Shown here one piece after another: positions 33,962 through 57,491 of a stretch of 64,000 nucleotides of DNA. Made by a program: the position numbers and the translations under genes. Origin of the DNA: a virus. Its lineage: Duplodnaviria > Caudoviricetes. Where the stretch lies: IMG/VR virus record IMGVR_UViG_3300032285_003957, positions 128,001 to 192,000 of that record, one strand, 5' to 3'. The notes under the pieces were generated by a model. The model saw nothing but the letters and a program-made list of their open reading frames with translations. It searched no databases and was not told where the DNA came from. The first letter of the stretch is position 1. The number at the start of each line of letters is the position of its first letter.

Positions 33962-36900
33962 ATGGCGCAAAATTACAGAATTTCAACAAATATTGGTAAA
34001 GAACAGAAGGTAACCTTCCAAATGAACCAAGACTACGATTTTTTAGAAATCCTTTCTTTAAAATTCAGTCAAAAAGAGGTTTATACATCCTTATGTTCGG
34101 ATTATGGAGTTGTTTGTGGTAGAGTTACAGCAAACGATGGATTGGGTATTCCTAACGTAAAAGTTGCAATATTCATTCCCGTTTCGGAAATTGACAAATT
34201 AGACCCCGTTGTTTCAGCGGTGTATCCTTATGAAACGATTACATCTCAAGATGCTGATAACATTAGATTTAATGTATTACCTGCAAGAAAACAACATTCA
34301 GGACACACACCAACAGGAACATTTCCTGACCAATCAGACTTACTACAACAAGAAGAATTAATTTATGTTTTTGAAACATATTACAAATACACAGCAAAAA
34401 CAAATGATGCAGGTGATTTTATGATATGGGGAGTGCCAATTGGTCAGCACACAATTCACTTTGATGCCGATTTGTCAGATATTGGTTGTCAATCACTTGT
34501 TCCATACGATTTAATGTATGAAGGTGTTTCACAAGAAAAATTTGAAAACAAATACACATTTTTATCATCAACAAATTTAGATACACTTCCACAAATTATT
34601 TCAATTGATAAAACAATTAATGTTTATCCATTTTGGGGTAATCAAGATTTATGTGAAATAGGTATCACAAGAGTTGACTTTGATTTAAAAGAAAGAGGTG
34701 TTAGGATTGACCCATATGCATTAATTATGGGCGGAACAGTTAGTGATGGTGTTGATGATATGATGTCATACAATTGCGATGTTGGTGAAAGACAAGGTGA
34801 GAAATGTAGACTTATTACAAAGAAAGGTGATATTGAAGCAATTCGTTTTACAGGAAAATATGAAACGGATACAAACGGAACACCAAATCCAAGAAGACCA
34901 ATATTAGAAATGTTCAAAGTAGATAGCACTATTGATGAACACGGAACATTTTTCTTCAGAGTTCCTATGAACATGAAGTATATTAAAACTGATGAGTTTG
35001 GTGAAATTGTGGAATCTAAAGACCCAAATATTGGTATTGCAACAGCGGGAACATATCGTTTTAGATTAACACTTACAGACGAATCAGGTGGTGCTAACAA
35101 AGGAATTAATGGAACATACTTAGTTCCAAATATTAGAGAATATCATACAAACGACCCATCTTTCATTGGTGCTCCGTCAACAATTGACCCAAAGTCATAT
35201 GCGTTTAGTCCTAATTTAGATGATTACCCTACGGCAGCACTGGATGAAATAGTTGGATTAAGTCAGACCGCAATAGACGATAATAAAATTGGAATACCAC
35301 AAGATTACTTTTATCAATTTAGATACAGTAGAGTATACACGGTAGCACAATTTATTAATAGATACATGTCAGCCAACGCACATCAAAGTGGGAATTGGTT
35401 TTGGTCAAGAACAACAAGAGATAAAGAGTTCTTAGCATTCAAAGACATCTATCCCGATAAAGAAACAGATTGTTCTAATACACACGTTCATTTACCAGTG
35501 AACGATGCAACAAAGAAAAATAGAGTTAATTTATTTTTAATTACAACATTGAATTGGGTTAACTATGGTAACCTTACATATTCTTTAGCAGTAAGAGAAT
35601 TTAACGTAATGATTAACTGGTTATTTGGAGGTTTTTTTGGTGGTTCAAGTGCAGCGGCATCAAGAAGAAGAAACAAAGAATATCAGTTTAAAAATATAAT
35701 GAAACTTAAGTTAACGGTTTATCCTGATTGTTATGATTGTGAAGAAGACACGCAAACAAATGGTCTTGATTATGGAGTTTCAGCGATTAATATTGGTGAT
35801 TATACAGGAACAACTTCTTTAAATAATGCTACGTTTTACATGGGCGAAAAGTATTATGCTGCAAGAAGTGCTGGCACATGTTCACAATTTACTATTAATA
35901 ATACAAATAGTGACCCAAAGACAATTACTTACACAGACTGTAATAACAACCCACAAACATTAACATTAGCTGCTGCAGAAAATGGTAGAACAATTTGCGC
36001 AAAAAGTTTAGGTTCTTTACCTTCAGGAGTATCATCAACCGTTGATGATTCATCGTCAAATGCATGTTTAGCTTATGACCCTAATGGTGATTTATATTTT
36101 CACAATGATACCAATGGAGTATATGCACAATACAATCTAACTAATTTACCTGCATCAGCAACATCATCCCTATATGATGGTAAGTTATTAAAACAACAAT
36201 ATGTTATTGGTGTTAATGTTTTAGGTGCAGGTTTACAATATTATACTATTGGTATCGGACAACAATTTCCAATAGTTTATGATTCAGCAACATCATATTG
36301 GAAAATACAAGGTTTATATACCAATATTTCAACACAAATTGCTAACGCTTATAACCAACCACTTGATGGTGTTGTGAGTGGAACCGCGCATAATAAAACT
36401 AATTTAGTTGATATTGAAAAGATATGGTTGGTAACGTATAACTACACTGGTAGCACAACTGGTGTAGAACAAGAAACTGGTTGTCAAAAATACGATACGA
36501 TATACGATAACTATAATGAAGCACCTGGTTTATTTTCACAAGGTAATATGCGTTTAAGGTCAGTTAAATTTCCTATAACATTAAAAAATGGAACAACGTT
36601 AGCAACTTATGTTGATGCGTTGAATTATCTTGAAGAAAATCCACCTGATAATTATACGGGTAATGCTGCAAGTGGTTGGACAACAACTAATAATGTGTTA
36701 TTATGGAATGCATTAGATAATAACTATTACACAGAGATTTATGGATTGAATGAAGACGAATGTCAACCAAGACCACAATACAATTATGGTGCGGTTACAT
36801 CTGTTTATGCTAAATGGCCAGGAACTAATTCAGGTAATTTTAGAAACGATGATGTGAGATGTGTAAGATATGGAAAATATGCGGGAACATCTGGTAAAGG

Positions 36901-38443
36901 TAAAGGTAGCTCTAAAGAAATGGTTGACCCGTTAGCCACAACTGGTGGAACAATGTCAGGTTACTCAGAATTTAGAGATGGTGTTTATACAATTGTCCCA
37001 ATGGCGGGTCGAACTTTTGAAATGTTAGCTGATTTTAGAAGAAGAAAAACATTTGCAGCATTTATGTGCGGCGGTATTGTTAATTATACATTCTCTAACT
37101 CTTGGATAAATGGTATGTTATACTTCTTTAAATTTGCAAAAAACAATCAAGATTTTTGTAAAGATAATGTGTATAAGAAAATTGGTGAAACTGATAATAA
37201 AACATATTATTATTATCGTTCAACACCATATAATCCGGGTTATAGTGGTAAAACCGATTCAACATATACTCAAATTATAACACAAGCAACAACAAGTCAT
37301 CTTGAATTACAATATGATTATGACCCTGACACTGGTGTAAAATCATCAACACCAAATACTGGTTTAACAAAAACATATTTAAGTCAAACAAATGGTTTCC
37401 ATGGTCATCAAAGATTATTAGATTTTACTGAAGGTTATGGTGGTTTATGGTTTTTATTTAGTCCGCTAGCTACTTGGATTAAATTGACTTTATTAGTCTT
37501 TGAAGGTAACGATAATTCACTAAAAAGATATAAACGTGAAATAAATTTCCCAACAACAATTGTAGATTTAGGTCCAAGACAAACGTGGATTAGAGAAATA
37601 TGCACAGACCCTTCAATGGATGTCAACTGCGCTATTACAAGAAGTATTGGAAACACATCATTTAAGAACATAACAGATTTAATGGAATATGTTATTGGAT
37701 CTAAAGAACTTAAAGAAAGAGGTCGTTTAACAATTGATTCGTTATTTTCCAATAGAGGATTAAATCTAATTGACGGTGACGTTGCTCAACTATTAAATTT
37801 CAATACTCAAACAGGTATATATCCATTTGAATATTCGTCAGGCTCAATTTCACCTTATGGTCATTTATATGATAATTTATTTGATGGTAGAGGTGCGGTT
37901 AATCTTGATTTTGTATATAGTGTTGATGACCCTGATACAAAAACAATTGAAGCTAATGGTAGAGAAATTAGATTATGTATTAATCAACCTGGTAGATTAG
38001 GTGATAATTCACAAAGAGTTCCGTATTTCAAATGGGATACTGTAGGAAATGGTTATGGTGATTCAAAGTCAACATTATTTGGTATTACACCAACAGATAC
38101 AAAAACAAGCGAAATGCAAAACTATTTCACAGCTTATGTTTATAACCAAAGATTACAAGAATTTAAAGCAAATTTAAATGCAGATGTTAATAATAACATA
38201 TTAGATAATAATTTCATTGGTAATTCATCAACATCTGTAACTCCGTGGTTATTACCACCAATTAGAGATTGTATTGAAATTAATGGTGTTAAGAAAAAAG
38301 GTTATGACAACTATAAAGAATATACTGTAGGAGGTAAAGCTCGACATCTTATGGAAATAGGCGTTCCTTTCCATTATTGTTTTGGAATTAAAAAAGGCTC
38401 AACAGCATATGATAAGTTTTTAGAAAGTTATGGTCCATTATAA
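33962..38443 (+). CDS. Large putative baseplate-associated virion protein
   Basis: Follows gp6. The N-terminal GRVTANDGLGIPNVKV segment is carboxypeptidase-regulatory/Ig-like; the protein is Cys-rich with many [ST]GxT motifs. Confidence 0.55.
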   Translation: MAQNYRISTNIGKEQKVTFQMNQDYDFLEILSLKFSQKEVYTSLCSDYGVVCGRVTANDGLGIPNVKVAIFIPVSEIDKLDPVVSAVYPYETITSQDADNIRFNVLPARKQHSGHTPTGTFPDQSDLLQQEELIYVFETYYKYTAKTNDAGDFMIWGVPIGQHTIHFDADLSDIGCQSLVPYDLMYEGVSQEKFENKYTFLSSTNLDTLPQIISIDKTINVYPFWGNQDLCEIGITRVDFDLKERGVRIDPYALIMGGTVSDGVDDMMSYNCDVGERQGEKCRLITKKGDIEAIRFTGKYETDTNGTPNPRRPILEMFKVDSTIDEHGTFFFRVPMNMKYIKTDEFGEIVESKDPNIGIATAGTYRFRLTLTDESGGANKGINGTYLVPNIREYHTNDPSFIGAPSTIDPKSYAFSPNLDDYPTAALDEIVGLSQTAIDDNKIGIPQDYFYQFRYSRVYTVAQFINRYMSANAHQSGNWFWSRTTRDKEFLAFKDIYPDKETDCSNTHVHLPVNDATKKNRVNLFLITTLNWVNYGNLTYSLAVREFNVMINWLFGGFFGGSSAAASRRRNKEYQFKNIMKLKLTVYPDCYDCEEDTQTNGLDYGVSAINIGDYTGTTSLNNATFYMGEKYYAARSAGTCSQFTINNTNSDPKTITYTDCNNNPQTLTLAAAENGRTICAKSLGSLPSGVSSTVDDSSSNACLAYDPNGDLYFHNDTNGVYAQYNLTNLPASATSSLYDGKLLKQQYVIGVNVLGAGLQYYTIGIGQQFPIVYDSATSYWKIQGLYTNISTQIANAYNQPLDGVVSGTAHNKTNLVDIEKIWLVTYNYTGSTTGVEQETGCQKYDTIYDNYNEAPGLFSQGNMRLRSVKFPITLKNGTTLATYVDALNYLEENPPDNYTGNAASGWTTTNNVLLWNALDNNYYTEIYGLNEDECQPRPQYNYGAVTSVYAKWPGTNSGNFRNDDVRCVRYGKYAGTSGKGKGSSKEMVDPLATTGGTMSGYSEFRDGVYTIVPMAGRTFEMLADFRRRKTFAAFMCGGIVNYTFSNSWINGMLYFFKFAKNNQDFCKDNVYKKIGETDNKTYYYYRSTPYNPGYSGKTDSTYTQIITQATTSHLELQYDYDPDTGVKSSTPNTGLTKTYLSQTNGFHGHQRLLDFTEGYGGLWFLFSPLATWIKLTLLVFEGNDNSLKRYKREINFPTTIVDLGPRQTWIREICTDPSMDVNCAITRSIGNTSFKNITDLMEYVIGSKELKERGRLTIDSLFSNRGLNLIDGDVAQLLNFNTQTGIYPFEYSSGSISPYGHLYDNLFDGRGAVNLDFVYSVDDPDTKTIEANGREIRLCINQPGRLGDNSQRVPYFKWDTVGNGYGDSKSTLFGITPTDTKTSEMQNYFTAYVYNQRLQEFKANLNADVNNNILDNNFIGNSSTSVTPWLLPPIRDCIEINGVKKKGYDNYKEYTVGGKARHLMEIGVPFHYCFGIKKGSTAYDKFLESYGPL

Positions 38444-39137
38444 TATGAAGATATTTGATATTTTTAAAAAAAGAAAACCAAATCATTTAATAATTTACGT
38501 TGATTATAAAAGACGTGAATTATGGCTTTATAAGCTATTGTCTAAATTAACATATAGTGTTGGTCCTTTTACTGAAATGGATAAAGTTATTGATGGCGTT
38601 AAAAAATTTATTTACAAATATCCTGAACCATTAAAACAAATAAACATAACAAGTTTTGGTAGAGGTAGAAATTTAGTTGAAACGATTGAAGGTAGTGAAA
38701 AAATAAAAGAACTTGTTGACGCATTACGTCCAATCATTACACCTGAAACAAAATTAATGTTCACAACTTGCTTTAGTGGTATTTCATATAGAATGGCGGT
38801 AGAAATGTCAGAATATCTTGATGGTATTGAAATCTACGCTATGAAAAGAAGATACGGTATAAATGCGTTAATGACAAAATGTCAATGTAAAGAAAGTGGA
38901 TATAGCCAAAAAGTGATTGATTCAATACCATTAAGCAAAAGAGGGTTTTATGTTGATGAAAAAAATATGATTGACATTGTTAAGTGGCAACTTAATCAAG
39001 AAGTTAATTGGGTAACATCGGGAATGGCATATGAATATAACAAAAGAATGTTTGAAGATGGTATATGTGATACAAGTAAACAACCTAAAACAGTTTTGGA
39101 TGGAATAAAAAATTATTTATTTAATACTCAAGATTAA
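38430..39137 (+). CDS. Hypothetical protein, possibly a degenerate caspase-fold (DUF4347-like) domain
   Basis: INITSFGRG...LMFTTCFSG pattern; lacks the Thr/Gly bias of its neighbours. Confidence 0.5.
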   Translation: MVHYNMKIFDIFKKRKPNHLIIYVDYKRRELWLYKLLSKLTYSVGPFTEMDKVIDGVKKFIYKYPEPLKQINITSFGRGRNLVETIEGSEKIKELVDALRPIITPETKLMFTTCFSGISYRMAVEMSEYLDGIEIYAMKRRYGINALMTKCQCKESGYSQKVIDSIPLSKRGFYVDEKNMIDIVKWQLNQEVNWVTSGMAYEYNKRMFEDGICDTSKQPKTVLDGIKNYLFNTQD

Positions 39138-40987
39138 TGGACGAAAATAAACAAATATTACTTCCAAGTAAAAAATATCAAAAAGCTAACGACGAAGATG
39201 TTACTATTAGAATGGGGTTGGAAAACACCGAATCTTTAGTTAGAATTGGCGATAGAGAAATTGTATTAGACATTGCGGAACAATTTAATACCGAAAGACA
39301 AGCAAGCACCAAATATAAAATATACGGTAAAATGAGAATGGTGTTTCGTAATATGTATTCTGGTTCAACAACATATACAAATTTACAACGTAATTTATAT
39401 TTAAACGGTGACGGTAGTGAAGATATTGCACAATTTCCAAATAAATGGAAAGAAGGTTATATGTCTTATGAAGAGTTTGCATTGTTAAGAAACGATGTGT
39501 TAAGACAATCCTTTAATGTTCAAACAGGTGATACTTTATCATCATTCACCACATCAACAGATTTAATGGGTAATTCATATACGGGCCATACATTATTAAC
39601 ACCAATTACGGCCCCGTATCAAAATTGGAACATATATCTTTCTTATGTGTATGCACAAGATAGCTCATTTCCTATGGGTTATTCTTTTTCAGGAACAACC
39701 ACAGGATGTGGTGATGGAACAACGTTTTGTTTTACATCGGGTGATGGTATTCCATTTAGAATAACTGATGATGGAAAATATTATACATTAACAAGTCCTG
39801 TTGAACATGGATTTAGTGTTGGCCAATATATTTTATTATCAGGCGGAACATGTAATTTTAACGACTACGCTCATTCATTATTCCAAGTCAACACCGTTGG
39901 AAATCAAACATTCAATTCTGACAAATACAGCATTCAAATTAGTAAAGCTCAATTTAAATCTACAGCGTCAATAAACGGACAAATATTTGCTTTAGGTAAA
40001 AGAGTTACAGATATTAAAGATATAAGCGGTTCAACATCAAATTATTATGTTCACAAACATAAAACATTAACAGGTGTTAATGACTATATATTAGATTATG
40101 TTGGTTTTGAAAAACCAATATGGGAAGAAGAAAGAAAATTATTATTTGAAAATGTTGATGGCACATCAGATTATTTAGTTACTCAAAACAGAATGGAAGC
40201 TGTTTTATATGATTTTAAAGATACGTTAGATATATCTGGTTTAACAAATAACATGGGATTCACACCATTGGAAGTATATGTGACAACAATACTAAGAAAT
40301 GGTAATGGTTATTTTGATTATCCACCTAAAGTTGGATATAAATTTAATTTTCATGATTCATGGATAGACCAACACTTTAGTGGAACAACATCATACGAAA
40401 AAAGTATGACTGGTAACACATATACATTTAGTCCTAATTCTGCTGTAAGCGGATTTCCAACATTTACAGGTGGGACTGCATTACCTATTGGAACAATATT
40501 AACTGGTGCTTATGTTGAATATAACCCAAAGGAACACAAAGAAAGAATTATAAGTGAATCGTTTCATAAGTTTACAATTAAAAAAAGTGTTTTTAATCAT
40601 AGTCAAGACCAAGGCGTAATTGGATTTTTAGGTGCAACATCCGCAAATCCATTTGGGATGTATTACCAACCGCATCATCGTATTAAACTTAGACAATTAT
40701 CACCATATATTGAAATTGCAAATACTAATGACATTTACAATTTACCTGAAAATTGCACCTATGATGCTCACGATGGTGTGTGGAGATGGAGAGATTTATA
40801 TGACCACGGATATGTTGACCCCGATAATTACGGAACAAACTTTCCATTTGTAAATGGACAACATTATGTAATGAATGAAATTAATTTTTATTTAAGAAAT
40901 GAAAAATATTACACAAATAAAAAAGATGGTATTATTGATTTTAATGACATAATCAACAATAAGAATAAAAATGTAACAAATTGCTAA
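39137..40987 (+). CDS. Putative virion structural protein
   Basis: 616 aa inside the structural cluster, with 10 [ST]GxT motifs. Confidence 0.6.
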   Translation: MDENKQILLPSKKYQKANDEDVTIRMGLENTESLVRIGDREIVLDIAEQFNTERQASTKYKIYGKMRMVFRNMYSGSTTYTNLQRNLYLNGDGSEDIAQFPNKWKEGYMSYEEFALLRNDVLRQSFNVQTGDTLSSFTTSTDLMGNSYTGHTLLTPITAPYQNWNIYLSYVYAQDSSFPMGYSFSGTTTGCGDGTTFCFTSGDGIPFRITDDGKYYTLTSPVEHGFSVGQYILLSGGTCNFNDYAHSLFQVNTVGNQTFNSDKYSIQISKAQFKSTASINGQIFALGKRVTDIKDISGSTSNYYVHKHKTLTGVNDYILDYVGFEKPIWEEERKLLFENVDGTSDYLVTQNRMEAVLYDFKDTLDISGLTNNMGFTPLEVYVTTILRNGNGYFDYPPKVGYKFNFHDSWIDQHFSGTTSYEKSMTGNTYTFSPNSAVSGFPTFTGGTALPIGTILTGAYVEYNPKEHKERIISESFHKFTIKKSVFNHSQDQGVIGFLGATSANPFGMYYQPHHRIKLRQLSPYIEIANTNDIYNLPENCTYDAHDGVWRWRDLYDHGYVDPDNYGTNFPFVNGQHYVMNEINFYLRNEKYYTNKKDGIIDFNDIINNKNKNVTNC

Positions 40988-42364
40988 ATGAAAATTTTAA
41001 GAAATTATGTTGACCAAAATATAGTAATTAATACCGAAACCGATATTCAAACTAATGCGGGATGGGAAGAAAGTTTACAAGAATTTGAAACTGAAATCCT
41101 AAAAGAAATTGTCAACCCAATTGAAAATTATGAAACGGTAAGATATATTCATGCGCCATATACAACAACTAATGGTGGGTTAACATTCCAACAAGTTGAT
41201 TTATGGTTTGAATTTTATTTTTTAAGTGGCGGAACATATTCAACAGACTATACTTCGGCAGGTATAACACTTCACGAAAACACACAATTTCTAACTCAAT
41301 TTAGCAAATCATTTTTTAGAATTGAATTTTATAAAACACCTGGCGTAGTTGTTAATAATGTTTTAACTTGTCAACCACCAACAAGAACCAATAGAAAATT
41401 AGTTTTTGCTAAAAATTTACCAACAACGTTAAGTGAAAAATTTCATTTGAATTCAGTTGCAGACACAATACATATACCAATATTTCATGCATCTAACTAT
41501 AAAAACAGGGAGATGATTTACCAATTTTGGTTCCAAGATGAATCGGTTTTAGCTGAAACAAATTTAAGTGGAACAACAACAGGTAACACGTTTTTCATGA
41601 CTGCTAAATTTTACAATACAAAAGATGGTTCTATTGTGGATTTTACAAATGACGATTTTTGTCATACGTATGAAATAACTGAACAGTTTGACATGTATTA
41701 TCAAGTTGATTTTGATTACGTCAATCATAATTACATGATTTATAGATATAATGGAACTAAAGGTTCAAGAATTGGTGAAAGTGGTGACCCCATTTTATTT
41801 TATGAAAAGGGTGGTAAAATCAATTGTGCAACACCAACACCAACACCTACACCAACAAAAACACCAACAAATGGACCAGCGGTTACACCAACGTTAACAC
41901 CGACTCCAACAATTACACCTACAAGAACATCTTCAACACCATACAGTCAACCCGTTGATTTTACATTGGCTAATGATTGTGAAAATTTTGGCGTTAGGGT
42001 TGCAAACATGACTGGCGGCCATAATCAATTTCAAGGAACTGGTTTGTATTTTAGTGCGGCAGAAGCCACAGGTGCAACATTCTTTAATATCTCACAAATA
42101 AATAACACCACGGGTTATAATGCATCAAGGATATCAGGTAATTTATTTTATGCAAATGGAGTTACAATGTATGTTGCTGTTAGAGATTTACAAAATCCAT
42201 CAAACATAAGTGTTAAATCAATTGTTTTATCTAACTGCACACCACCATCTCCGTCACCACCAGTAAATCCAAGTGATTTATATACTAATACCATAACACT
42301 AAGTTACATTTCTTCTTTCCAAAGTAGTAAATGTGAAGCCTACACTAATTGCACGTGGGCATAA
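40988..42364 (+). CDS. Putative virion protein with a Pro-Thr linker and Cys-containing C-terminal domain
   Basis: [13 protein letters not shown] linker near 41827-41940. Confidence 0.6.
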   Translation: MKILRNYVDQNIVINTETDIQTNAGWEESLQEFETEILKEIVNPIENYETVRYIHAPYTTTNGGLTFQQVDLWFEFYFLSGGTYSTDYTSAGITLHENTQFLTQFSKSFFRIEFYKTPGVVVNNVLTCQPPTRTNRKLVFAKNLPTTLSEKFHLNSVADTIHIPIFHASNYKNREMIYQFWFQDESVLAETNLSGTTTGNTFFMTAKFYNTKDGSIVDFTNDDFCHTYEITEQFDMYYQVDFDYVNHNYMIYRYNGTKGSRIGESGDPILFYEKGGKINCATPTPTPTPTKTPTNGPAVTPTLTPTPTITPTRTSSTPYSQPVDFTLANDCENFGVRVANMTGGHNQFQGTGLYFSAAEATGATFFNISQINNTTGYNASRISGNLFYANGVTMYVAVRDLQNPSNISVKSIVLSNCTPPSPSPPVNPSDLYTNTITLSYISSFQSSKCEAYTNCTWA

Positions 42365-46836: not shown

Positions 46837-47400
46837 ATGCCAGACTTGGGAACATTAACATTTACAATACCATCTTACTTATTGGAAGATGGGACAAGTG
46901 CACCCGCAACCACGGTTAATCAAAATTATTTAAACAATTTAGATTACGTTGCGAATACAGGTGTAACCGCAGGATATACGGGAATGACATATTATGCCAT
47001 AGGAGGAAGTCGTATTCAAGAAAAGAAACTTTACGGTGGTGGGTATAGTGGTGTAACAACTGGAATGACAGAAGACAATGTTATTTACAGCGCATATAGT
47101 TTCACCTACAGTGGTCAAACTATGGGTAATCAAACATTATATTATGCCGATTTTCCTGATGGTCATACAATGATTACGGGGCATACAACAGGTTTTACAG
47201 AACAAGCGGTTTTTAATTCTGTCCTAACTCGAAATGAACATTTCCTTGGATTTGTTGAACAACCAAGAATATATTCGGACATTTTTGTTGAAAGAGGAAA
47301 AATGGGAGTTTTAGAGAATAACCACAGATTGGGAGAAATTGGAACATTAGGTGACCTTGAGTATTATGGAAACAAATACTTTAACGTCAAAAAACTATAA
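46837..47400 (+). CDS. Putative virion protein (start moved to ATG 46837)
   Basis: The track start lies inside the terminator. TATTTAAT sits 3 nt before ATG 46837. The protein has 7 [ST]GxT motifs. Confidence 0.65.
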   Translation: MPDLGTLTFTIPSYLLEDGTSAPATTVNQNYLNNLDYVANTGVTAGYTGMTYYAIGGSRIQEKKLYGGGYSGVTTGMTEDNVIYSAYSFTYSGQTMGNQTLYYADFPDGHTMITGHTTGFTEQAVFNSVLTRNEHFLGFVEQPRIYSDIFVERGKMGVLENNHRLGEIGTLGDLEYYGNKYFNVKKL

Positions 47401-48346: not shown

Positions 48347-51300
48347 TGGCAACATCAAGAACGGTAAGATTAAAAATACCAAATCAGGCTGCGAGCGGAG
48401 CGGATACATTTAGTGACAATCTTGTTGGTAATCAAATTACCGATGGAACTGGTCAATTGACCAATAGCAACTTTGCGTTAGATAAAGTAATAGTTGAAAA
48501 GGATAGTAAAGAATTTAAAACAGCAAAATTTTCTGAATTCTTAACTTTAGATAGTTTAAAAAAAGAAACATCCGCACCAACAACACAAGACACAACTGAT
48601 GGTTCTGTTAGTCAAACCAAAGATGAAAAAATTAAATTCAGAAGTTCAAAAAATGATGCAAGTAGGTCTTTGTTTGGTTCTTTAAAAGACAGAACATTTA
48701 TTTCGTTAAAAAAAATAATTACAAAGTTTCCTGCCGCCCTTTATGCTGACCCCGATTCTGTAGTCGGTATTTCTGAATTTACAGCAAAAAATATTACATA
48801 TAGTAAAGTATCTAATATAACTTCATTTGATATTGAGTATGGTAAAATATACAATCCATTAAGTATTAATTTAGTTGCACCAAATAGTGCAGATTCATTA
48901 ACTACGGATAATGATATTAAAAACATATATTCAGCTTATAAAAAATATGTTTTAGTTTATAATGGTAATCAATATGATGTTGTGGGATATGTTCAACCAA
49001 CATCATTAAATTATAACACAACAACATTTAGAGTTAAAGGTTTACCATTTGGTGATAATACTGGTGTTAGTGACTCTTTCTTAATAAGACCAAATGATGG
49101 AATAACTGAAGAGTTTTTCTTAAATTTAGATGATTTAGAATCTTTATTATTGAATAGAGATACAAGTCCAATTTATCAAGTAAATTTCAAAGTTCCAAGA
49201 GATTCGGCAGACTTAACGGGAACCGAAATGACAACATTAAGTTATAACTGGCCACTATCAAAAGACGGTTATAACATACAAATCGTAGGTTTAGATTACG
49301 AGGAATATGTTGACGCTTTAAGTAGCACAGCTCAAGAGATTGATGACTATAAATCAAATTTAGTTGTTAGATTTTTAACGGCGCCCCAATTATTTGAATT
49401 TGATACCGATGACCAAAGAGCACAAGCAATTTTTCAATTATATGGTCAATCATTCGATAGAGTAAAAAAATATATAGATAATATTGCTTACATGAGAAAT
49501 GTAAGTTATGACGGTATCAATAATGTTCCTGATGTATTATTAAAGAATTTATCAGAAACATTAGGGTTCAATACTGTTAATTTATTTGACGAAAAAACAT
49601 TAGACGAATCATTATATAGAAAACACGATACACAATATACTGCACTTGATTCAGGTAAAAGCTTAGTTGAGGCTGAAAACGAATTTTATAAAAGATTAAT
49701 AATTAATCTTGTTCATTTATATAAATCAAAAGGGACTAAAAACGCATTAACATTTTTTTTAAAGTTTTTAGGTGCACCCGAACCATTAATTAAAATTGAC
49801 GAGTATGTTTATGATGTTGATTCATCATCATTACCTACGTCAACACAAGATGATATATATAACACAATTAATGGTAATTTTGTTGAAACTATCATTACAG
49901 GTTTTTCACAAACAACTTATGCATACTCAACGGGAACAACAATACACACAACAGCATTAACTCGAGATGAATATCCAATTGACACATATAATGTCCCAAA
50001 AAGTGTTTCAAATGTTAGTGATGACATTTTCTTTCAAAAAGGAGCTGGTTGGTATGATTTAACAATAGACCATAGGTCACCAAATATTACTGATACAGCA
50101 AATTCAGTATTAACTGGTAGAATTAAAAGTGTTGTAACTAAATCAGCACCATTTACATATGGAGAAGATTATTTTCAAAATTTTAGAAAATTCCCTGGTT
50201 TAGATTATGGGTTTCAACTTACAGCAAGAGTAGTTGATAACAAAGGTGATGTTGATAATGTATTATCTGATTTTACACTTAATAGAAAAAATATTGGAAT
50301 ATATTTGTCATCAGCACGAGCTGTGGATTATGATATTTGGAGACAATCAAGAAACTTAGAACTTACTTTTGGTTCGTTGGGACCACAAACAGGATACACA
50401 TTTGCGGAGTATTTAGATTCAGCATTAAATGAAGTTATTAAAAATTCACATGTTGCTAAATTTAAACCTCACTATCCTGATTTAGTTACTGTTTACAATT
50501 CATATATTAGTAGCACACAAATTACACCATATGATTTTATTGCAATAAATGATTTCATTTATAAAATGAGTCCAATGTGGACTCAACTAATTGAACAATT
50601 TGTTCCTGCTACAACATTGTGGACTGGCGGTAATTTAATTGAAAACAATAGATTCCAAAGGTCAAAATATACATATAAAAAACCTTGTCAAGTATTTGAA
50701 TTAATTGACGACACGTATCCTGAACCAACAGGAACAACCACTTCATATTTTGTAGATGAGATAAATTATCTATGGAATCAATTAGGATTTGTGCATGACG
50801 GATCTAATGATTATCCTCAATTAAGAGATTGGCTCGAAGATGGCTACATGCAATTCTTTCCTATTTTTAAAATAGATGGTGTAACATATTCAGGTTCAAC
50901 AGACCATGTATTGATTCCACCACCACCAATCCATGCGGGATATGTTGATGCGGAAAACTATGAAGCTAAAGCAGCTTACACAGGTTATACTGGTTGCACG
51001 TATGCACTATTATCAGGCGCAACAACAAATATTAGTCCCGTAAACGGTCAATATGAAAATGCGAGATTATATAAAGATAAAAGTTCAGGAGATGACGAAC
51101 AAAATATAGATTTTGTAGGATTAAAAGCAATGTGGAAACAAGCAATTGTTAACACAGTAAGATACATTAACACATATAGTGGTTATACTGGAACAAATAA
51201 TCAATTAACATTTACACCTAATGCAGTTGGTAAAGATACTGCTTATGGAAATTCTATCAATAATCCAAGTATTACAGGAACAACAATATTACCAATATTA

Positions 51301-52932
51301 TCATATGAATTTTTTGTTAATAAAGATGGTGTTGAAAAAGTAAGATTTAAATCATACAAATATGGTCCACATAATTGCACAGTAATGAATTCATTTGATT
51401 TCTTATTTGCATATGGTTATGCGTCACCAGACCCAACACCGACTGTTACACCAACAATGACGGTAACACCAACACACACACCAACTGTTACACCAACACC
51501 GACTGTTACACCAACTATGACCGTCACACCAACAATGACGGTAACACCAACACAATCAATACCATGTGTAATTAATGCTAGCGCTGAATATAGAAGTAGC
51601 GCATGTCCGGTAACACCAACACCAACACCTACACCAACATCTGCAGCAATTGCTGTTACGCCTTCAGTTACCGTAACACCATCAACACCTTTACCAGGTT
51701 GTGGTAGCACAGTTTCAGGTAGTTGGGCATCAGGAACTAATGTTGTTCAAACAAGATATCTTGATTTAACGGCGGCAACAAATGGTGGTTTAATTACATT
51801 ACATTATACAGCAAATGAAAGACCTGACAGATTTAACATATATGATAGTTCAGATAATTTAGTTGTTACTAGTGGATGGGTTGGTTCGGATTATAACTAT
51901 ACAGGTCCGTGGACAGGCGGTGGTGGCATTGCTGATACTGATGGCGATGGATATATGTCATTTACATATGATAGTTCTAAAACATATCGTTTAACTGTTG
52001 ATGTCGGACCATGGAATCCTGCTAATCAACTTTCAGATAGTTGGTCGGTTACAATTACATGTGCAGGCGTCATAGCACCAACACCAACAGTTACAACATC
52101 ACCATCTATGACACCAACACCAACACCAAGACAAAGATACCAAGTGCAATTATGTGCAGGTAGTGGTGGTAATGGAACACAAATTTATAACATAGAAATT
52201 GCATTATCGGTTACAGTTGGTAAAACATATACATTATTAGGTTATCCTGGTGCACCTGCATTAATGAATGGTGCAAATTGTTGGAATATTAATAATGCTA
52301 ATTTTGATAACACATATGATGGAACTGCAACTTATAATGAAGAATATCCAGATTGTGCACATTGTTCAGCGGCCCCATTAACCGCATATACGGGTAGCAC
52401 ATTATTAAATGCGTGTAATGGAGTTAATGGTCAAACAACATTATGGTATAGAGGTAATTTAGGCGTTGGAACTGTATTATATAGTGATAGAAGTTTATTA
52501 GCGGATTACTTAGTGCCAACACCGGGTTATTATTACGATGTTGATAATGATAGAGTTTTACACGTTGGTGTGTTTAGTCAATATCCAAATATTCCATCAC
52601 CAGAAGATGGGTATGTTACCGACATTCAATATTGTCCTGCACCAACACCAACACCAACACCTTCACCAATTGGAGTAGCGTTAGGTGGATATATGGCATT
52701 ATCTTATGGTAGCACAGGACCTGGTGCATGTTCAGGAAGTAGTGGAACAATTAATGTTTATTATGCTTCTACTGATCCACATGGAGGTGATTTATGGTCA
52801 GGAACAACATATTATAATTTTAATGGTTTCCCATTTGATGGTAGTTCATATGGTTATTTTTCCGATGGAGTTAGTTATTATGGAACAATAAGTGAAAATG
52901 GTTATTACCAACAAGAAGGAACTTGTGAATAA
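48346..52932 (+). CDS. Baseplate wedge protein (T4 gp7 / P2 gpI-like core) fused to Pro-Thr linkers and adhesin-like modules
   Basis: FYKRLIINLVHLYKSKGTKNALTFFLKFLG motif; C-terminal PT repeats and Cys-bounded modules. Confidence 0.6.
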   Translation: MATSRTVRLKIPNQAASGADTFSDNLVGNQITDGTGQLTNSNFALDKVIVEKDSKEFKTAKFSEFLTLDSLKKETSAPTTQDTTDGSVSQTKDEKIKFRSSKNDASRSLFGSLKDRTFISLKKIITKFPAALYADPDSVVGISEFTAKNITYSKVSNITSFDIEYGKIYNPLSINLVAPNSADSLTTDNDIKNIYSAYKKYVLVYNGNQYDVVGYVQPTSLNYNTTTFRVKGLPFGDNTGVSDSFLIRPNDGITEEFFLNLDDLESLLLNRDTSPIYQVNFKVPRDSADLTGTEMTTLSYNWPLSKDGYNIQIVGLDYEEYVDALSSTAQEIDDYKSNLVVRFLTAPQLFEFDTDDQRAQAIFQLYGQSFDRVKKYIDNIAYMRNVSYDGINNVPDVLLKNLSETLGFNTVNLFDEKTLDESLYRKHDTQYTALDSGKSLVEAENEFYKRLIINLVHLYKSKGTKNALTFFLKFLGAPEPLIKIDEYVYDVDSSSLPTSTQDDIYNTINGNFVETIITGFSQTTYAYSTGTTIHTTALTRDEYPIDTYNVPKSVSNVSDDIFFQKGAGWYDLTIDHRSPNITDTANSVLTGRIKSVVTKSAPFTYGEDYFQNFRKFPGLDYGFQLTARVVDNKGDVDNVLSDFTLNRKNIGIYLSSARAVDYDIWRQSRNLELTFGSLGPQTGYTFAEYLDSALNEVIKNSHVAKFKPHYPDLVTVYNSYISSTQITPYDFIAINDFIYKMSPMWTQLIEQFVPATTLWTGGNLIENNRFQRSKYTYKKPCQVFELIDDTYPEPTGTTTSYFVDEINYLWNQLGFVHDGSNDYPQLRDWLEDGYMQFFPIFKIDGVTYSGSTDHVLIPPPPIHAGYVDAENYEAKAAYTGYTGCTYALLSGATTNISPVNGQYENARLYKDKSSGDDEQNIDFVGLKAMWKQAIVNTVRYINTYSGYTGTNNQLTFTPNAVGKDTAYGNSINNPSITGTTILPILSYEFFVNKDGVEKVRFKSYKYGPHNCTVMNSFDFLFAYGYASPDPTPTVTPTMTVTPTHTPTVTPTPTVTPTMTVTPTMTVTPTQSIPCVINASAEYRSSACPVTPTPTPTPTSAAIAVTPSVTVTPSTPLPGCGSTVSGSWASGTNVVQTRYLDLTAATNGGLITLHYTANERPDRFNIYDSSDNLVVTSGWVGSDYNYTGPWTGGGGIADTDGDGYMSFTYDSSKTYRLTVDVGPWNPANQLSDSWSVTITCAGVIAPTPTVTTSPSMTPTPTPRQRYQVQLCAGSGGNGTQIYNIEIALSVTVGKTYTLLGYPGAPALMNGANCWNINNANFDNTYDGTATYNEEYPDCAHCSAAPLTAYTGSTLLNACNGVNGQTTLWYRGNLGVGTVLYSDRSLLADYLVPTPGYYYDVDNDRVLHVGVFSQYPNIPSPEDGYVTDIQYCPAPTPTPTPSPIGVALGGYMALSYGSTGPGACSGSSGTINVYYASTDPHGGDLWSGTTYYNFNGFPFDGSSYGYFSDGVSYYGTISENGYYQQEGTCE

Positions 52933-52947: not shown

Positions 52948-54522
52948 ATGGCAATATCGGGAATCATAACAATAGCGGATACAACAACAGCAAGTATAAC
53001 ATCTTTTGATTTATATTCATGCACGTCATCAAGTAATAGTTCTTGTAGTGGAACAGCTTTTGCTACGAACGTATCGAGAGCAAGCTTGTTGGATGGTTAT
53101 TGTAGTGATTTAATTCCAGATGGAACAACATATATAAAAGTTAATGCAAATAGCGGTGCTTGTCAAAACATTAACCCTGCTATAGTTGAATTATCGGGTG
53201 TTCCAATAATACCAACGTCAACACCTACACCAACACCGGCAGCACCAACACCAACACCAACACCAAGTAAAGCACCGGGTAGCGGATTGACAGCACATTA
53301 TTTATCAACGGGTTCAACATATGCTGAAGCGTGTGCAAATTTCAGCATACACACGGACCCATATTATGTTTACAATGACGCCACATTACAAGCAGGTAAC
53401 GTATTATGTCAAAACAATAACTGTTCAACCAAAGCACTTAATGGATATTATTCTGATGGGACAAATTATTGGCTTGTGGGAGATGGCGTTGGAGGAATTA
53501 GTGCAGGACCAACATCATGCTCAATTGTTGATATAACAACAATTGATTTAGGTGGTGTTAATTGTAGATTAGTTGGTTCTTGTAATGACAACGGCACATG
53601 TTCGGTGAGATATAATATTAACTTTGCAAATGGTAGACCATCTGCAACTCAAGTATTTGTTCAACCTATAGGTAGTAATACAGCATCTGTTGCTGTTTAT
53701 AACGATTTAGGTAATAACACAGATGTTTATTTAGATTATAGCGAAAGTAATGGGTCACAATCAATTAATTTTAGATTAATATTAAAATCATTCCCAAGTG
53801 GAAATGAAATATGTAGGTCAGGAGATTTAACTTTAAATCACAATCATGGTGGTGCACCATGGAATATGATTAGTGCATGTAGTAGTGGTACTAGTGGAAC
53901 TTCAGGTTCGTCAGGTGGTGGTGGAACATCATATTACTCATTCACTGTAGGAACTGGTTATACGGCGCATGATGCTTGTGCAGATGCGGTAAATAATACA
54001 TTAACATTATATACAACCGATAGTGCAAATAGAAATTTGGTTGACCAAACGTCATATTATAGTAATAATAGTGGAGCATTATTTACAAGCTCAGGATTCA
54101 TACGCTTCTCTGACGGAACAAATTACGGTATAATAGATCAATATGGTGTTTATTATCAAACAGATGCATGCACCAATTTACCGGTATTAGGAACAATTAC
54201 CGGATTCACATATGATACTCAAGGAACATATGATTACGGTAGCGACACAACATCATATGTGACAACCGTAACTGGACATACTAATGGTGTAGGTCCAATT
54301 ATAGCGGGTGTTTCTAATTTAGCATTAAGTGTTAAAGTATATTCCGCAAATAGAGATGAATATGCTTACGTGATGTTAGGTGGAACTGTCGGTAGTGGAA
54401 CGGAGGTAGTCGGTGAATATTCTTGGAATGGTGGATATGACCCGTATATACTTACATTATGTTTCGACCAATGGTATGCGCAAGCACAAGGTAATGTTGA
54501 CCCAACATTAAACTGTCATTAA
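52948..54522 (+). CDS. Putative fibre/decoration protein with modular Cys-bounded domains
   Basis: N-terminal module shared with 54574, a PT linker, and NGYYSDGTNY modules. Confidence 0.55.
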   Translation: MAISGIITIADTTTASITSFDLYSCTSSSNSSCSGTAFATNVSRASLLDGYCSDLIPDGTTYIKVNANSGACQNINPAIVELSGVPIIPTSTPTPTPAAPTPTPTPSKAPGSGLTAHYLSTGSTYAEACANFSIHTDPYYVYNDATLQAGNVLCQNNNCSTKALNGYYSDGTNYWLVGDGVGGISAGPTSCSIVDITTIDLGGVNCRLVGSCNDNGTCSVRYNINFANGRPSATQVFVQPIGSNTASVAVYNDLGNNTDVYLDYSESNGSQSINFRLILKSFPSGNEICRSGDLTLNHNHGGAPWNMISACSSGTSGTSGSSGGGGTSYYSFTVGTGYTAHDACADAVNNTLTLYTTDSANRNLVDQTSYYSNNSGALFTSSGFIRFSDGTNYGIIDQYGVYYQTDACTNLPVLGTITGFTYDTQGTYDYGSDTTSYVTTVTGHTNGVGPIIAGVSNLALSVKVYSANRDEYAYVMLGGTVGSGTEVVGEYSWNGGYDPYILTLCFDQWYAQAQGNVDPTLNCH

Positions 54523-54573
54523 AACTAAAAACTAATATTTATATAATAACAAAAAAATAGTAAATTAAACTAT

Positions 54574-55443
54574 ATGTCATTCTTAACTAAAATAACCCTA
54601 ACAACTGCAGGATCATCAACTGGACCTTTTGATATATACCAAAATTCGGATAACTATGCTACGGCGGTAGCTACAGGTGTAACTAAATCCGATTTAGTTG
54701 CGGGGTATACAATTTCAGTAAATGATACTACAACAAGTGTATTGGTCCAATCTTTAGGTCTATGTAACACAAGTAATATTACATTACCAATAAGTGGATT
54801 CCCAACATCAACTCCAACACCTACACCAACATTAACACCAACAGCATCCCCTGTGGGCGCTGGTGTTAGTCATATATCACTTTCAAGTGGTCATACGGTA
54901 GCAAGCGCTTGTACTGGTGCAACTCAAACTTATTACTATTCAGGTTCATTTATTAATGGTGCACAATTATGGGTAGACGCTCAATTTACAGATAATGCAC
55001 CTGGTACAAATGGTAGTCCAGTTTATTATTATTCATACGATTTCAATTCAATATATTATATTAATGATAGTGAAGGTCACAAATATGCTTCATCCGAAGT
55101 TTGTCCTACAGCGACACCGGTTGTAAACGCTAATTCATATTGGGTGAGCACAGTAGATGGGCCAACAGCAGCTACTTGTGGTGGTGATGACGTATTTGGT
55201 GTTCCTCACACGCAATTAACAGGTTTTACAGTTTATGGTAGTGCAATTTCAGGTATTTGTGATGCAACAATGATTGTTGATATGCCTGCAATTGTTAAAT
55301 CTGAAGTTCCGTTTAATGGCACATTCTGGGTTGGTAAAAAAGTTGGTGGTAATTTCTACTATAGAAAATATGTCAGAGATTCGTCAGGAACATCAGCAAC
55401 ACCAGATGGAGCATGCGTAGTTTATAATACTCCTTGTAATTAA
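54574..55443 (+). CDS. Putative fibre/decoration protein, paralogous to 52948 at the N-terminus
   Basis: ITLTTAGSSTGPFDIY...TGVTKSDLVAGY module followed by a PT linker. Confidence 0.55.
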   Translation: MSFLTKITLTTAGSSTGPFDIYQNSDNYATAVATGVTKSDLVAGYTISVNDTTTSVLVQSLGLCNTSNITLPISGFPTSTPTPTPTLTPTASPVGAGVSHISLSSGHTVASACTGATQTYYYSGSFINGAQLWVDAQFTDNAPGTNGSPVYYYSYDFNSIYYINDSEGHKYASSEVCPTATPVVNANSYWVSTVDGPTAATCGGDDVFGVPHTQLTGFTVYGSAISGICDATMIVDMPAIVKSEVPFNGTFWVGKKVGGNFYYRKYVRDSSGTSATPDGACVVYNTPCN

Positions 55444-55460
55444 AAAATATAAATTAAAAA

Positions 55461-57491
55461 ATGAGCTTTTTAGATAAGAATAACCAAGAATATATAACAG
55501 CAAGATTAACGCAAGAAGGTCGTAATGCAATCGCTAAAGGCGATTTTAAAATCGATTACTTTGCTGTTGGTGATTCTGAATATAACTATAATTTTACAAC
55601 AGGTTCACAAATGGTGTTAGCACCAATGGATAAAGATACTCAAGTAAAATATCCGTTATTATATCAAAGCGGCTCAGCAACAATATACGGAGTTCCAATT
55701 ACCGGTTCAACAACTGAAACGATTAAAAATGTGATGGGTGAAGCAGGATTTATTTCTGGTAACACATTTTCAGATGGTGCATTAGTTACATCAGGTAGTT
55801 TCACAAATATAAGCGGCGCAACTACATTAACATTAACAGTTCCAAGTGGTAAAACATATTTCGATTCAGGATATATTACATTATTCACAAATGGAGTATC
55901 AAATAAAACATTGACATCTTTTTCCAATAGTTACACCTATAAACTATTAAGTGTTTCAGGATTAACGTCAACAAGCGAAATGTTGACATTAGATAGAGCA
56001 ACACCAAATTTGTCAGGATTAACTGGTAATTTTTATATTGTTGGTAATAATTGTGAAAATGAATTCACAGTGGCAAGTGACATCAATAACACTTGTTTAC
56101 CTCCATTACCTGACCCATCTGCACAACACAATCCTTGGAAGTTGAATACTGTGTGGTCACAAAATCCAATCGGGTTTAGAACAACAGACGACAAAACAAC
56201 CGGCTTTGTCAGTGCAAAATATCATTCTGCAAAAGAATTATTAGGTTATTATTCAAATAGCGGTCAAACATTTACAGATATAACTGGTGGCACAATATCG
56301 GGAATTACATATGTTAATTCATTTGGTGAGGAAATAATGTTAAACCCTAATCAAGCAAATACAATAGCAATTGTTCATTATTCTGAAATTGGAGATTTTA
56401 TTAACGACCCTGATAGATATTACAAATATGATGATTACATAGCACATACAGGACAAACAGATAATACAAATTTTAAAATACACATTCCTTTCATAAATTA
56501 TCATAGAAACACTGGAACCACAATTGGTGCATATTTTTATATGGGAACGAGTAACAAATACATTTCATCCACACCAAATTCTTTACATAAAATAAAATAT
56601 AGAGATTTGATTGATGAACAAAATATTAAAGTTGGTAAAGTATTTGTTAATAATAAATTAATTGTTTTTGATGACCAAGAAATTGCAGCAGTTTTAGACC
56701 ATAAATCAAATAGAAATTTCACATTACCTGCACCAAAATTAGAATTAACACACTCAACAGACGGAACATATCTATTAGGTGGCACAACAGGTGAAACGCT
56801 TTATATTTCATATCTATTCTCAGGTGCAACAGGTTTAAATTCATATCCATGTAATGCAATAACAAACGTAAAATTAGAATACGAAACAGTAAAAGACGAA
56901 TGTTCTGTTACTGCGATATTACCCCCATCAGATGTTGTGGTTAAATTTACAGGTAGCACACAATTTGATTTTTTACAAACGGATAACGCTAATTTAAAGA
57001 GCGGAGTAACTATGACTAAGTTCTACATCCTTGCACAAAAAACGCAAAACAACACGTTACCAACATCAAATGGATGGAGATTAATTGATACTAATACATC
57101 ATTAACAAATGGTTATATTGCTGAGTCATCAGTTTATAATTCAATAACTAAAATTACAAAATATCAATACGATAATGCATCGATATTTTCATTGTCAGAC
57201 CATACCGGTCAATCATATTCAAATGCGACCACACAATTTGGTGACGAACAACCATTTGCAGGTTCAGTTAAATTAACAAGAGCATCCGACATTGAAGAAA
57301 TGAAATTCTTGGTAAACTTACCATCAGGTAAATTTGCAACATCACAAAATCCAACACACACAACGGGTAATCCTATGATTACTGAAATTGCGTTATTGGA
57401 TGAAAGTAAGAATGTTTTGGTTATGGGAAAAACACCTTCACCTATTTCAAGAAATTCTTCACAAGTATTTGCTGTTAAATTAGACTTCTAA
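55461..57491 (+). CDS. Tail-fibre attachment protein (P2 gpH N-terminal / DUF3751-like) with a large insertion
   Basis: N-terminal ARLTQEGRNAIA...FAVGDSE and C-terminal ITEIALLDESKNVLVMGKTPSP. Confidence 0.55.
   Translation: MSFLDKNNQEYITARLTQEGRNAIAKGDFKIDYFAVGDSEYNYNFTTGSQMVLAPMDKDTQVKYPLLYQSGSATIYGVPITGSTTETIKNVMGEAGFISGNTFSDGALVTSGSFTNISGATTLTLTVPSGKTYFDSGYITLFTNGVSNKTLTSFSNSYTYKLLSVSGLTSTSEMLTLDRATPNLSGLTGNFYIVGNNCENEFTVASDINNTCLPPLPDPSAQHNPWKLNTVWSQNPIGFRTTDDKTTGFVSAKYHSAKELLGYYSNSGQTFTDITGGTISGITYVNSFGEEIMLNPNQANTIAIVHYSEIGDFINDPDRYYKYDDYIAHTGQTDNTNFKIHIPFINYHRNTGTTIGAYFYMGTSNKYISSTPNSLHKIKYRDLIDEQNIKVGKVFVNNKLIVFDDQEIAAVLDHKSNRNFTLPAPKLELTHSTDGTYLLGGTTGETLYISYLFSGATGLNSYPCNAITNVKLEYETVKDECSVTAILPPSDVVVKFTGSTQFDFLQTDNANLKSGVTMTKFYILAQKTQNNTLPTSNGWRLIDTNTSLTNGYIAESSVYNSITKITKYQYDNASIFSLSDHTGQSYSNATTQFGDEQPFAGSVKLTRASDIEEMKFLVNLPSGKFATSQNPTHTTGNPMITEIALLDESKNVLVMGKTPSPISRNSSQVFAVKLDF

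Follow-up and report, generated by a model that had tools for sequence, protein, structure and literature searches.

In a large clade of uncultured jumbo phages, the tetrapeptide [S/T]-G-x-T occurs about six times above chance in presumably exposed loops of tail, baseplate, sheath and capsid proteins that are unrelated to one another. We describe it here in the IMG/VR virus record IMGVR_UViG_3300032285_003957, from which a stretch of 64,000 nucleotides was analysed (the window). The window corresponds to bases 128001-192000 of the 234,116-bp record, which has a GC content of ~33% and comes from a jumbo myophage. The motif has the features of a short linear motif that is probably kept by selection for itself, in loops that vary in length and are presumably exposed. 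Tentatively, with a probability of about 0.4, we read it as a sequon-like site for O-glycosylation directed by the phage. The sites are densest in a run of twelve plus-strand genes (33962-57491), hereafter the module. Coordinates refer to the window unless the genome is named, and proteins without an assigned function are named after the first position of their genes.

After the Thr/Pro-rich protein 42956 was set aside, the module contained 64 [ST]GxT sites against 10.9 expected from composition-preserving whole-protein shuffles (binomial P ~1e-25), and x-T followed 64 of its 140 [ST]G dipeptides. The same type of shuffle gave all the per-protein expectations below. Shuffles confined to 20-residue windows, which keep the local composition, yielded 12.2 ± 3.4 sites against 63 observed, and both sets of shuffles exclude composition and local composition as the cause. 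The pattern had first been picked by eye; in an unbiased scan of every a-b-x-c pattern, TG.T and SG.T ranked top once the low-complexity TP/PT patterns were set aside. The codons for Thr, Gly and Ser at the sites were used in background proportions, with Ser drawn from both TCN and AGY, indicating that the constraint acts on the protein. A DNA-level motif, such as a restriction, methylation or packaging site, was excluded by this lack of codon bias.

The probability of Thr at +3 given [ST]G fell from 0.46 in the module to 0.18 in the region that encodes the sheath and giant virion proteins, to 0.07-0.10 in the regions of early and replication genes, and to 0.04 in the Ser/Gly-rich fibre genes at the genome end. 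The original prediction, which rested on counts by hand, had claimed that the motif saturates putative virion proteins and spares cytoplasmic enzymes. Its counts were reproduced for the proteins 46837 (7 of 7 [ST]G followed by x-T) and 39137 (10 of 15); for 55461 the 15 sites were confirmed, with a total of 25 [ST]G rather than 24. The motif also recurred, as had been noted, in 33962 (7/22), 40988 (4/9), 48346 (11/30), 15581 (4/15) and 22669 (3/7). No site was present in NrdA or the SSB encoded at 23644 (0/5 each). Enzymes generally were without the motif, as were the tail tube, portal and terminase; the count was 0 or 1 in each of the tail tube, hub, portal, terminase, polymerase, NrdA, SSB and RuvC.

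The densest large protein was the conserved virion protein 55461 (55461-57491, plus strand; 676 aa), with 15 sites against 1.35 expected (z 11.7), the expected number agreeing with the one or two sites that had been predicted from its composition alone. It had no match in Pfam, PHROG or PDB, and a tblastn search against isolate phages returned none either. Residues ~104-198 were modelled as a small beta-barrel like those of phage tail proteins, and a fold search with the model returned weak matches only (Z 8 or less). The conserved virion protein 39137 (39137-40987, plus; 616 aa) carried 10 sites against 0.78 (z 10.3), the majority of them positionally conserved through the clade. The 187-aa protein 46837 (46837-47400, plus; its open reading frame is also given as starting at 46804) carried 7 against 0.42 (z 10.5), including the doublets SGVTTGMT and TGHTTGFT, and its C-terminal half was highly conserved. 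Within that half, the segment LTRNEHFLGF...FVERGKQGVME was nearly invariant across the family, yet modelled with very low confidence. About half of its homologues (P0136, P0146 and others) were ~320 aa long, with an additional N-terminal domain that contains a TINWGDG motif and looks PKD-like by eye.

Additionally, the putative tail-fibre or baseplate protein 48346 (48346-52932, plus; 1528 aa) had 11 sites against 2.5 (z 5.6), a number reached in none of 2000 local shuffles, and the 1493-aa protein directly downstream of the wedge gene (33962-38443, plus) had 7 against 1.7. Enrichment was modest in the 458-aa protein 40988 (40988-42364, plus; 4 against 0.76) and weak in the 289-aa protein at 54574-55443 (plus; 4 against 0.95) and in the 524-aa protein at 52948-54522 (plus; 5 against 1.7), for which 64 of 2000 local shuffles reached 5 sites. 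Two very large virion-module proteins of 1593 and 1928 aa (10487-21367, plus) were mildly enriched (5 against 1.2 and 4 against 1.3). Protein 42956 (42956-46753, plus; 1265 aa, 25% Thr; PHROG 26672, virion structural protein) does not belong among the enriched members, having 5 sites where ~8 are expected once its composition is considered.

The motif is directional and strict. Ser and Thr were used equally at position 0 relative to composition. The position +3 after [ST]G was Thr-specific (64 Thr against 13 Ser in the module). The x position had been described as free; Pro was in fact absent from it (0 of 311 sites pooled over three genomes, 14 expected) and charged residues were depleted. 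The preceding residue had been described as often hydrophobic, and it was hydrophobic or beta-branched in 61% of the sites, with a preference for I/Y/W/L/T, no Arg, and Asp, Glu and Lys at 0.14-0.24x. Position +4 favoured Y/F/I/A, and Arg was nearly absent from -5 to +9. In the homologues of 55461, 39137 and 46837 (118, 120 and 57 sequences, respectively), [ST]GxT exceeded its expectation 11-, 17- and 9-fold. Most of the near-variants [ST]GxS, [ST]AxT, [ST]NxT, [ST]DxT, [ND]GxT, [AV]GxT, [ST]Gx[VI], TxG[ST] and [ST]GxxT stood at 0.4-2.4x, and the isolated ones at 3-5x were mostly due to one well-conserved column each. Thus, neither A, N, D nor S substitutes for Gly, and neither S, V nor I for Thr at +3. 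The shifted control [ST]GT reached 1.7-3.9x, indicating that local richness in Thr, Ser and Gly is worth at most a two- to four-fold excess and not a ten-fold one, and N-x-[ST] stood at 0.7-0.9x in the three families.

The sites are scattered over unrelated proteins and not arranged in tandem repeats, as had been proposed. Comparison by blastp of the module proteins with one another and with themselves gave no significant match and none off the diagonal; the sole match among the carriers, at E 0.002, did not involve any motif-dense protein. Profile comparison of the three dense families by hhalign gave probabilities of 2.5%, 0.4% and 0.2%, and hidden paralogy or internal repeats were rejected on these grounds. 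The histogram of distances between sites had no periodic peak; a spacing of 18-19 residues apparent in two proteins, which might have pointed to a solenoid, was lost when the data were pooled. Only two excesses were seen: one at spacings of 3-4, produced by doublets (SGVTTGMT and TGxTGxT, for example), and one at 11 that was attributed to a single low-complexity tract.

Metagenomic homologues were numerous (>1271 for 55461, 988 for 39137 and 395 for 46837), on contigs of up to ~350 kb. At least 267 IMG/VR stretches encode a relative of 55461 and at least 597 encode the capsid protein of the clade, the latter number making the clade very common in metagenomes. Density was maintained throughout: the homologues of 55461, 39137 and 46837 averaged 15.0, 12.9 and 6.95 sites against 1.35, 0.77 and 0.74 expected, and 26 sampled homologues of 55461 (~700 aa) had 8-22 sites each. 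In G001 (335 kb) and G004 (288 kb), both of them relatives with nearly complete genomes, the same module was equally enriched, with proteins holding, for example, 17, 18 and 19 sites against 1.03, 1.53 and 1.33. Sites occupied the same alignment column in at least half of the homologues at 9 (55461), 12 (39137) and 5 (46837) columns, and in the 55461 family a further 5.1 sites per sequence were intermediate and 3.7 sporadic.

The motif also marked the variable parts of two otherwise conserved virion proteins. The tail sheath (3827-6685, plus; PF04984 and PF17482) had x-T after 5 of its 20 [ST]G (five sites had been counted earlier), at residues 135, 167, 271, 297 and 651, all of them N-terminal to the conserved sheath domains (664-943). 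Three sheath orthologues had 5, 7 and 7 sites, and only a single column was shared by all three. In the major capsid protein (genome 97431-99191; PHROG 138), a variable insertion of ~225 aa lies between N- and C-terminal parts that hardly differ from one genome to another. In 77 distinct orthologues the insertion had 2.42 sites against 0.51 expected from its own composition, whereas the core had 0.16 against 0.16. At least one site was present in 74 of the 77 proteins, and of the 39 columns over which the sites were spread, none was occupied in as many as half of the orthologues. Column sharing fell from a fraction of 0.48 at ~90% identity to 0.07 at ~70%, and gains and losses occurred by single substitutions, such as ATGFHG / TAGFTP / TTGFTN. 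The expectation that sites would come and go while their density stays constant therefore held for the capsid protein and the sheath. Many sites in the families of 39137 and 55461 are fixed in position, which would also suit a structural role.

In the three dense families, 84-95% of the sites lay within 2 residues of a column prone to insertions or deletions (indels), compared with 33-58% of random positions, an association that could be overestimated if aligners favour gaps close to these residues (Gly, Ser and Thr). We infer the exposure of the site-bearing loops from their variable domains and indel-prone columns because both AlphaFold2 models were poor, with a predicted local distance difference test score (pLDDT) of 58 for the 55461 family (26 sequences) and 57.6 for the 46837 family (72 sequences). 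In the better-modelled stretches of these weak models, a strand ends at the Ser/Thr of the motif and a new one starts ~five residues further on. Sequence and profile searches of the PDB gave no relatives, and a search of the ESM Atlas returned only unnamed viral clusters.

The signal was absent from five control phages, in which the probability of Thr at +3 given [ST]G was 0.05-0.15 against 0.46 in the module. Three of them, LR756508, Microcystis phage Mel-JY01 and Flavobacterium phage immuto, are the phages with the nearest baseplate wedge protein, and their syntenic modules gave 0.06, 0.05 and 0.15, respectively. In immuto, 84 sites were counted overall against 49.8 expected, and none of its proteins exceeded 5 against 1.3. 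Observed-to-expected ratios were 1.04x in Xanthomonas phage XacN1 and 0.80x in Stenotrophomonas phage RAS14, neither of which had an enriched protein. The motif is therefore not a general property of beta-rich tail proteins.

A motif that is strict, set at the protein level, limited to one lineage and turning over is most economically explained by a lineage-specific reader. The original prediction had seen in it a recognition site for a phage-encoded modifying enzyme or, failing that, a docking site for a small decoration protein. The enzyme is favoured by the enrichment, the outward location, the turnover and the sugar genes of the phage, and is disfavoured by the failed co-occurrence with a GT60 gene described below. 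Docking found no support, and up to 15 sites per protein fit it poorly. We rank a sequon first because the lineage is rich in sugar enzymes and because there is a precedent in mycobacteriophages. In such a scheme, a clade-specific factor would read the motif in trans on outward-facing virion proteins, namely those of the baseplate and the fibres, the outer domain of the sheath and the insertion domain of the capsid protein. Glycosyltransferases of the phage would O-glycosylate one of the hydroxyl residues of the motif in the host cytoplasm, and the outcome would be a glycan coat on the particle.

The original prediction noted that no modifying enzyme is encoded in the window. Glycosyltransferases do occur in the genome, outside it. 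Pfam identified a sugar-enzyme cluster at genome 42461-50541, including a strong member of PF11397 (genome 42461-43711, E 6e-70), a family that corresponds to the CAZy GT60 polypeptide alpha-GlcNAc-transferases (Skp1 Gnt1 and the mucin-type enzymes of trypanosomes and Dictyostelium). Enzymes of family GT60 work in the cytoplasm or the Golgi, where they attach the initial sugar to the protein itself, often at Thr. The other genes of the cluster encode GT10-like and GT25 enzymes, an FkbM methyltransferase, a TylF O-methyltransferase fused to HtrL_YibB, and an NAD-dependent sugar epimerase/dehydratase. Further glycosyltransferase genes were found at genome 2095-2814 (GT2) and 57437-58165 (PF13712, minus strand), together with a GT2_5 gene. 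Genome-wide, the Pfam families comprised PF11397, PF00852, PF01755, PF00535, PF13712 and PF09612, in addition to methyltransferases and the epimerase. Between genome 107243 and 113852, no glycosyltransferase family was found by Pfam at E<=0.001, only PhoH, dUTPase and a weak match to Sigma70_r2. A prolyl 4-hydroxylase (PF13640) was not matched in the record, which is ~70% complete.

The distribution of these genes distinguishes between the candidate enzymes. GT60 was present in three of three relatives with a completeness of 90% or more; no copy was found in three incomplete relatives or in immuto, which also lacks the motif. The PF13712 enzyme was present in 5 genomes of the clade and in 0 of 3 controls, a small sample, and it tracks the clade better than GT60 does; a tblastn search with it against isolate phages returned no match. 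HtrL_YibB was set aside, as it does not track the clade. In XacN1 the GT60 gene lies beside a carbamoyltransferase, and in both XacN1 and RAS14 it lies near an HtrL_YibB-like gene. Homologues of the GT60 gene with 45-49% identity in jumbo phages of Xanthomonas and Stenotrophomonas, and the genes around them, suggest a mobile phage glycan module common to phages of different host phyla.

A fuller version of the sequon reading, which we put forward with more reserve, would have a jumbo clade predicted to infect Bacteroidota run a cytoplasmic O-glycosylation of its own. The sequon would be phi-[S/T]-G-x(not P)-T, the glycans would coat the capsid insertion, the sheath exterior, the baseplate and the fibres, and sites would keep appearing and disappearing, as glycan-shield sites of enveloped viruses do. 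Glycosylation would be started by one of the clade's own glycosyltransferases, be it the PF13712 enzyme, which is restricted to the clade, or a GT60 whose acceptor specificity has changed. The moraphages, freshwater jumbo phages predicted to infect Flavobacteriia, may belong to the same lineage. The moraphage report lists four glycosyltransferase orthogroups among those present in at least 80% of the genomes (PMC12619734).

Several observations weigh against glycosylation at the motif. We infer the covalent modification, the enzyme, the sugar and the acceptor residue alike, all from sequence. GT60 fails the co-occurrence with the motif across genomes: homologues 45-47% identical are encoded by XacN1 and RAS14, neither of which is enriched, so that the presence of GT60 does not predict the motif. 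The sugar enzymes could act instead on DNA or on glycans of the host envelope, or they could serve the TxTP tracts of 42956 or the Ser/Gly-rich fibres, which are more classical substrates for O-glycosylation; in those fibres the motif is under-represented (0.48x). Near the sites there is a strong depletion of Arg, Lys, Asp and Glu that is unusual for ordinary exposed loops, and many sites in 39137 and 55461 are positionally conserved with hydrophobic flanks, as an element of a fold would be. A mild excess (1.5-1.7x) in the early genes of the phage and in immuto suggests some intrinsic preference for the tetrapeptide. The low pLDDT values and the possible inflation of the indel association count on the same side.

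To our knowledge, some mycobacteriophages are the only phages whose virions have been shown to be glycosylated, and neither a sequence rule nor a tetrapeptide sequon has been described for them. Mycobacteriophages of the Che8, Rita and Corndog type (Freeman et al. 2023) are described in two reports as encoding their own glycosyltransferases, with virion proteins glycosylated in the host cytoplasm and glycans placed at the C-termini of capsid and tail-tube subunits, where they form a shield (PMC12619734, PMC11256854). The present clade resembles them in being tailed phages that encode glycosyltransferases. It differs in that the candidate sites are internal, in loops of baseplate, fibre, sheath and capsid insertion, and the tail tube has 0 sites; the host phylum and the enzyme families are also different, and the modification is proposed here from sequence. 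A search of the literature on the motif or on GT60 in phages found nothing relevant.

Chlorovirus PBCV-1 glycosylates its capsid protein with a virus-encoded cytoplasmic machinery that includes methyltransferase domains and GDP-sugar-modifying enzymes. The glycans of this eukaryotic giant virus are N-linked at Asn, at four sites in one protein, in non-canonical sequons with x-T-x-T-like elements. A virus-specific short sequence on the virus's own structural proteins is common to both systems, but the acceptor proposed for the phage is a hydroxyl, and its sites are spread over about a dozen proteins. The known acceptors of GT60 enzymes are hydroxyproline or Thr-rich mucin tracts, and [ST]GxT is not among them. 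In the Bacteroidota, the predicted host phylum, general O-glycosylation uses D-[S/T]-[A/I/L/V/M/T] on exported proteins across the proteome, outside the cytoplasm. A short O-sequon thus exists in that lineage. Its difference from [ST]GxT, already stated in the original prediction, was evident in the invariable Gly at +1 and in Asp at -1 at 0.15x; moreover, virions assemble in the cytoplasm. The N-x-S/T sequons of enveloped viruses exclude Pro at x, and their variable exposed sites shift at a kept density. The phage motif is likewise gapped, Pro-excluding and shifting, whereas N-linked chemistry, compartment and enzymes set those shields apart. In BclA of Bacillus anthracis, GxT/GPT triplets of a long triple-helical repeat are O-glycosylated on Thr with methylated unusual sugars. 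The phage shares G-x-T units and runs such as TGxTGxT with BclA, but its sites are isolated in globular proteins, and its collagen-like fibres use Ser and are motif-depleted. These fibres, two giant Ser/Gly-rich proteins of 2012 and 1442 aa (genome 217351-231594), contain as much as 31% Ser, and the third position of their collagen-like G-x-y triplets is taken by Ser, not Thr.

The alternative that survives best, possible though on balance unlikely, is that the motif is an intrinsic structural element that remains unmodified. The sequence phi-[S/T]-G-x-T-phi would end one beta-strand and start the next, with a Gly-dependent tight turn or strand cap in which the hydroxyls of Ser/Thr and Thr satisfy backbone hydrogen bonds. 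The motif would then recur because the carrier proteins are all-beta with many loops. Type II'/I' beta-hairpin turns and ST-turns are universal elements that tolerate Asn or Asp. The motif resembles a type II'-like turn, whose expected geometry is drawn from general knowledge of beta-hairpins, in its obligatory Gly, the hydroxyl residue before it, the beta-branched Thr after it, the hydrophobic or beta-branched -1, the aromatic or aliphatic +4 and the exclusion of Pro. A structural element also requires no enzyme of a new kind. It accords with the mild general excess in unrelated proteins (1.5-1.7x), with the conserved columns of the dense families, some nearly invariant (e.g. YHRNTGTTIG and MITGxTTGFT), and with partly confident regions of the models, in which the Ser/Thr closes a strand and another strand begins within a few residues.

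All the sequence features of a two-residue Gly turn were thus present (Gly obligatory, Pro 0/311, I/Y/W/L/T at -1, Y/F/I/A at +4), but its fixed loop length was not, as the sites lie at indel-prone columns and doublets are in excess. Adjacent doublets would leave no room for a strand between two hairpin turns, and the loops after the motif extend over ~five residues rather than two in the weak models. Turn statistics would also allow Asn or Asp in place of the Ser/Thr at position 0, and Ser in place of Thr at +3; these variants were mostly not enriched. The rapid turnover in the capsid insertion and the sheath also fits poorly. Moreover, a turn would leave unexplained the restriction to one clade and to outward-facing proteins, given that the beta-rich tail modules of the five control phages stood at 0.8-1.8x; we know of no viral lineage in which Gly beta-hairpin turns have been amplified tenfold.

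Improbable, in our estimate, is a role in non-covalent recognition, in which the loops would bind a host surface polysaccharide, another environmental glycan or an anion, or a clade-specific assembly factor or chaperone. The loops here lack charge and abound in Tyr, Trp, His, Thr, Ser and Asn, which makes them resemble carbohydrate-binding surfaces; the limitation of the motif to tail, baseplate, sheath-exterior and capsid-exterior proteins would also be in keeping. The phosphate-binding loop of flavodoxin, T/S-x-T-G-x-T (PMC7084853), indicates that the tetrapeptide can form an anion-binding nest. However, fifteen sites in one protein and their fast turnover are a poor fit to a binding pocket or a chaperone site, no candidate partner was found, and Pfam gave no lectin or carbohydrate-binding module (CBM) domain. 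An artefact of composition, shared ancestry or hidden repeats, such as relics of collagen-like G-x-T or [ST]GxT tracts, is very improbable and already largely refuted by the controls. In its favour are the high Thr content of the module proteins (10.7%, compared with 5.6% for early genes), the clustering of sites within domains, and the presence in the genome of G-x-y fibre genes and of a tract that consists of the motif. Against it, the global and 20-residue-window shuffles fell short of the observed counts, shifted and reversed controls of the same composition peaked at 1.7-3.9x (most at 1-2.4x), neither blastp and profile-profile similarity nor periodicity was seen, the capsid protein keeps gaining sites by point substitution, and the Ser/Gly-rich fibres are motif-depleted.

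If the motif is a sequon, a virus-encoded glycosylation of structural proteins with a defined rule and a glycan-shield-like evolution would be new; it would bring that style of evolution to bacterial viruses and might provide a new orthogonal tag for O-glycosylation. The strict definition of the motif and its occurrence in hundreds of environmental jumbo-phage genomes yield exact candidate peptides and make the idea testable now, given that protein 46837 (187 aa) and the insertion domain of the capsid protein would be short natural substrates and that the candidate enzymes are few. If instead it is a structural element, one lineage would have converged on a single loop 'dialect' across unrelated proteins, which would bear on fold prediction for proteins that are now modelled poorly.

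The record is classed as linear in IMG/VR, and its completeness of ~70% is a CheckV estimate. In the window, the sheath gene is followed by the tail tube (7024-7512, plus; PHROG 4542), a protein covered by the sheath in which x-T follows 0 of 2 [ST]G, and by the baseplate hub (7617-8366). The two giant virion proteins come next, then the SSB (23644-24489, plus; PHROG 1192), a DnaB-like helicase (27050), the ribonucleotide reductase NrdA (29477-31255, plus; PHROG 84, E 9e-154) and a gp6-like baseplate wedge (32075-33907; PHROG 219/6), which precedes the module. A RuvC-like resolvase (57531) lies behind it. Within the module, Pfam and PHROGs matched nearly nothing, and nothing for the motif-dense proteins. 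Terminase, portal and major capsid protein were identified elsewhere in the genome, outside the window.

Two further proteins have Thr- or Ser-rich tracts of their own. Residues ~250-690 of 42956 hold seven conserved repeats, each with an 11-residue segment followed by [NS]A.Y..PTPTPT, split by long TxTP tracts; the protein resembles a mucin- or extensin-like spacer with one Cys per unit. The TxTP tracts are candidate O-glycosylation substrates of the classical mucin-like kind, distinct from [ST]GxT. A 696-aa protein (genome 53674-55764), ~3 kb downstream of the sugar cluster and without a Pfam match, contains at residues 458-605 a low-complexity tract of concatenated [ST]GxT units (TSGST-SGDT-STT-SGTT-SGAT...).

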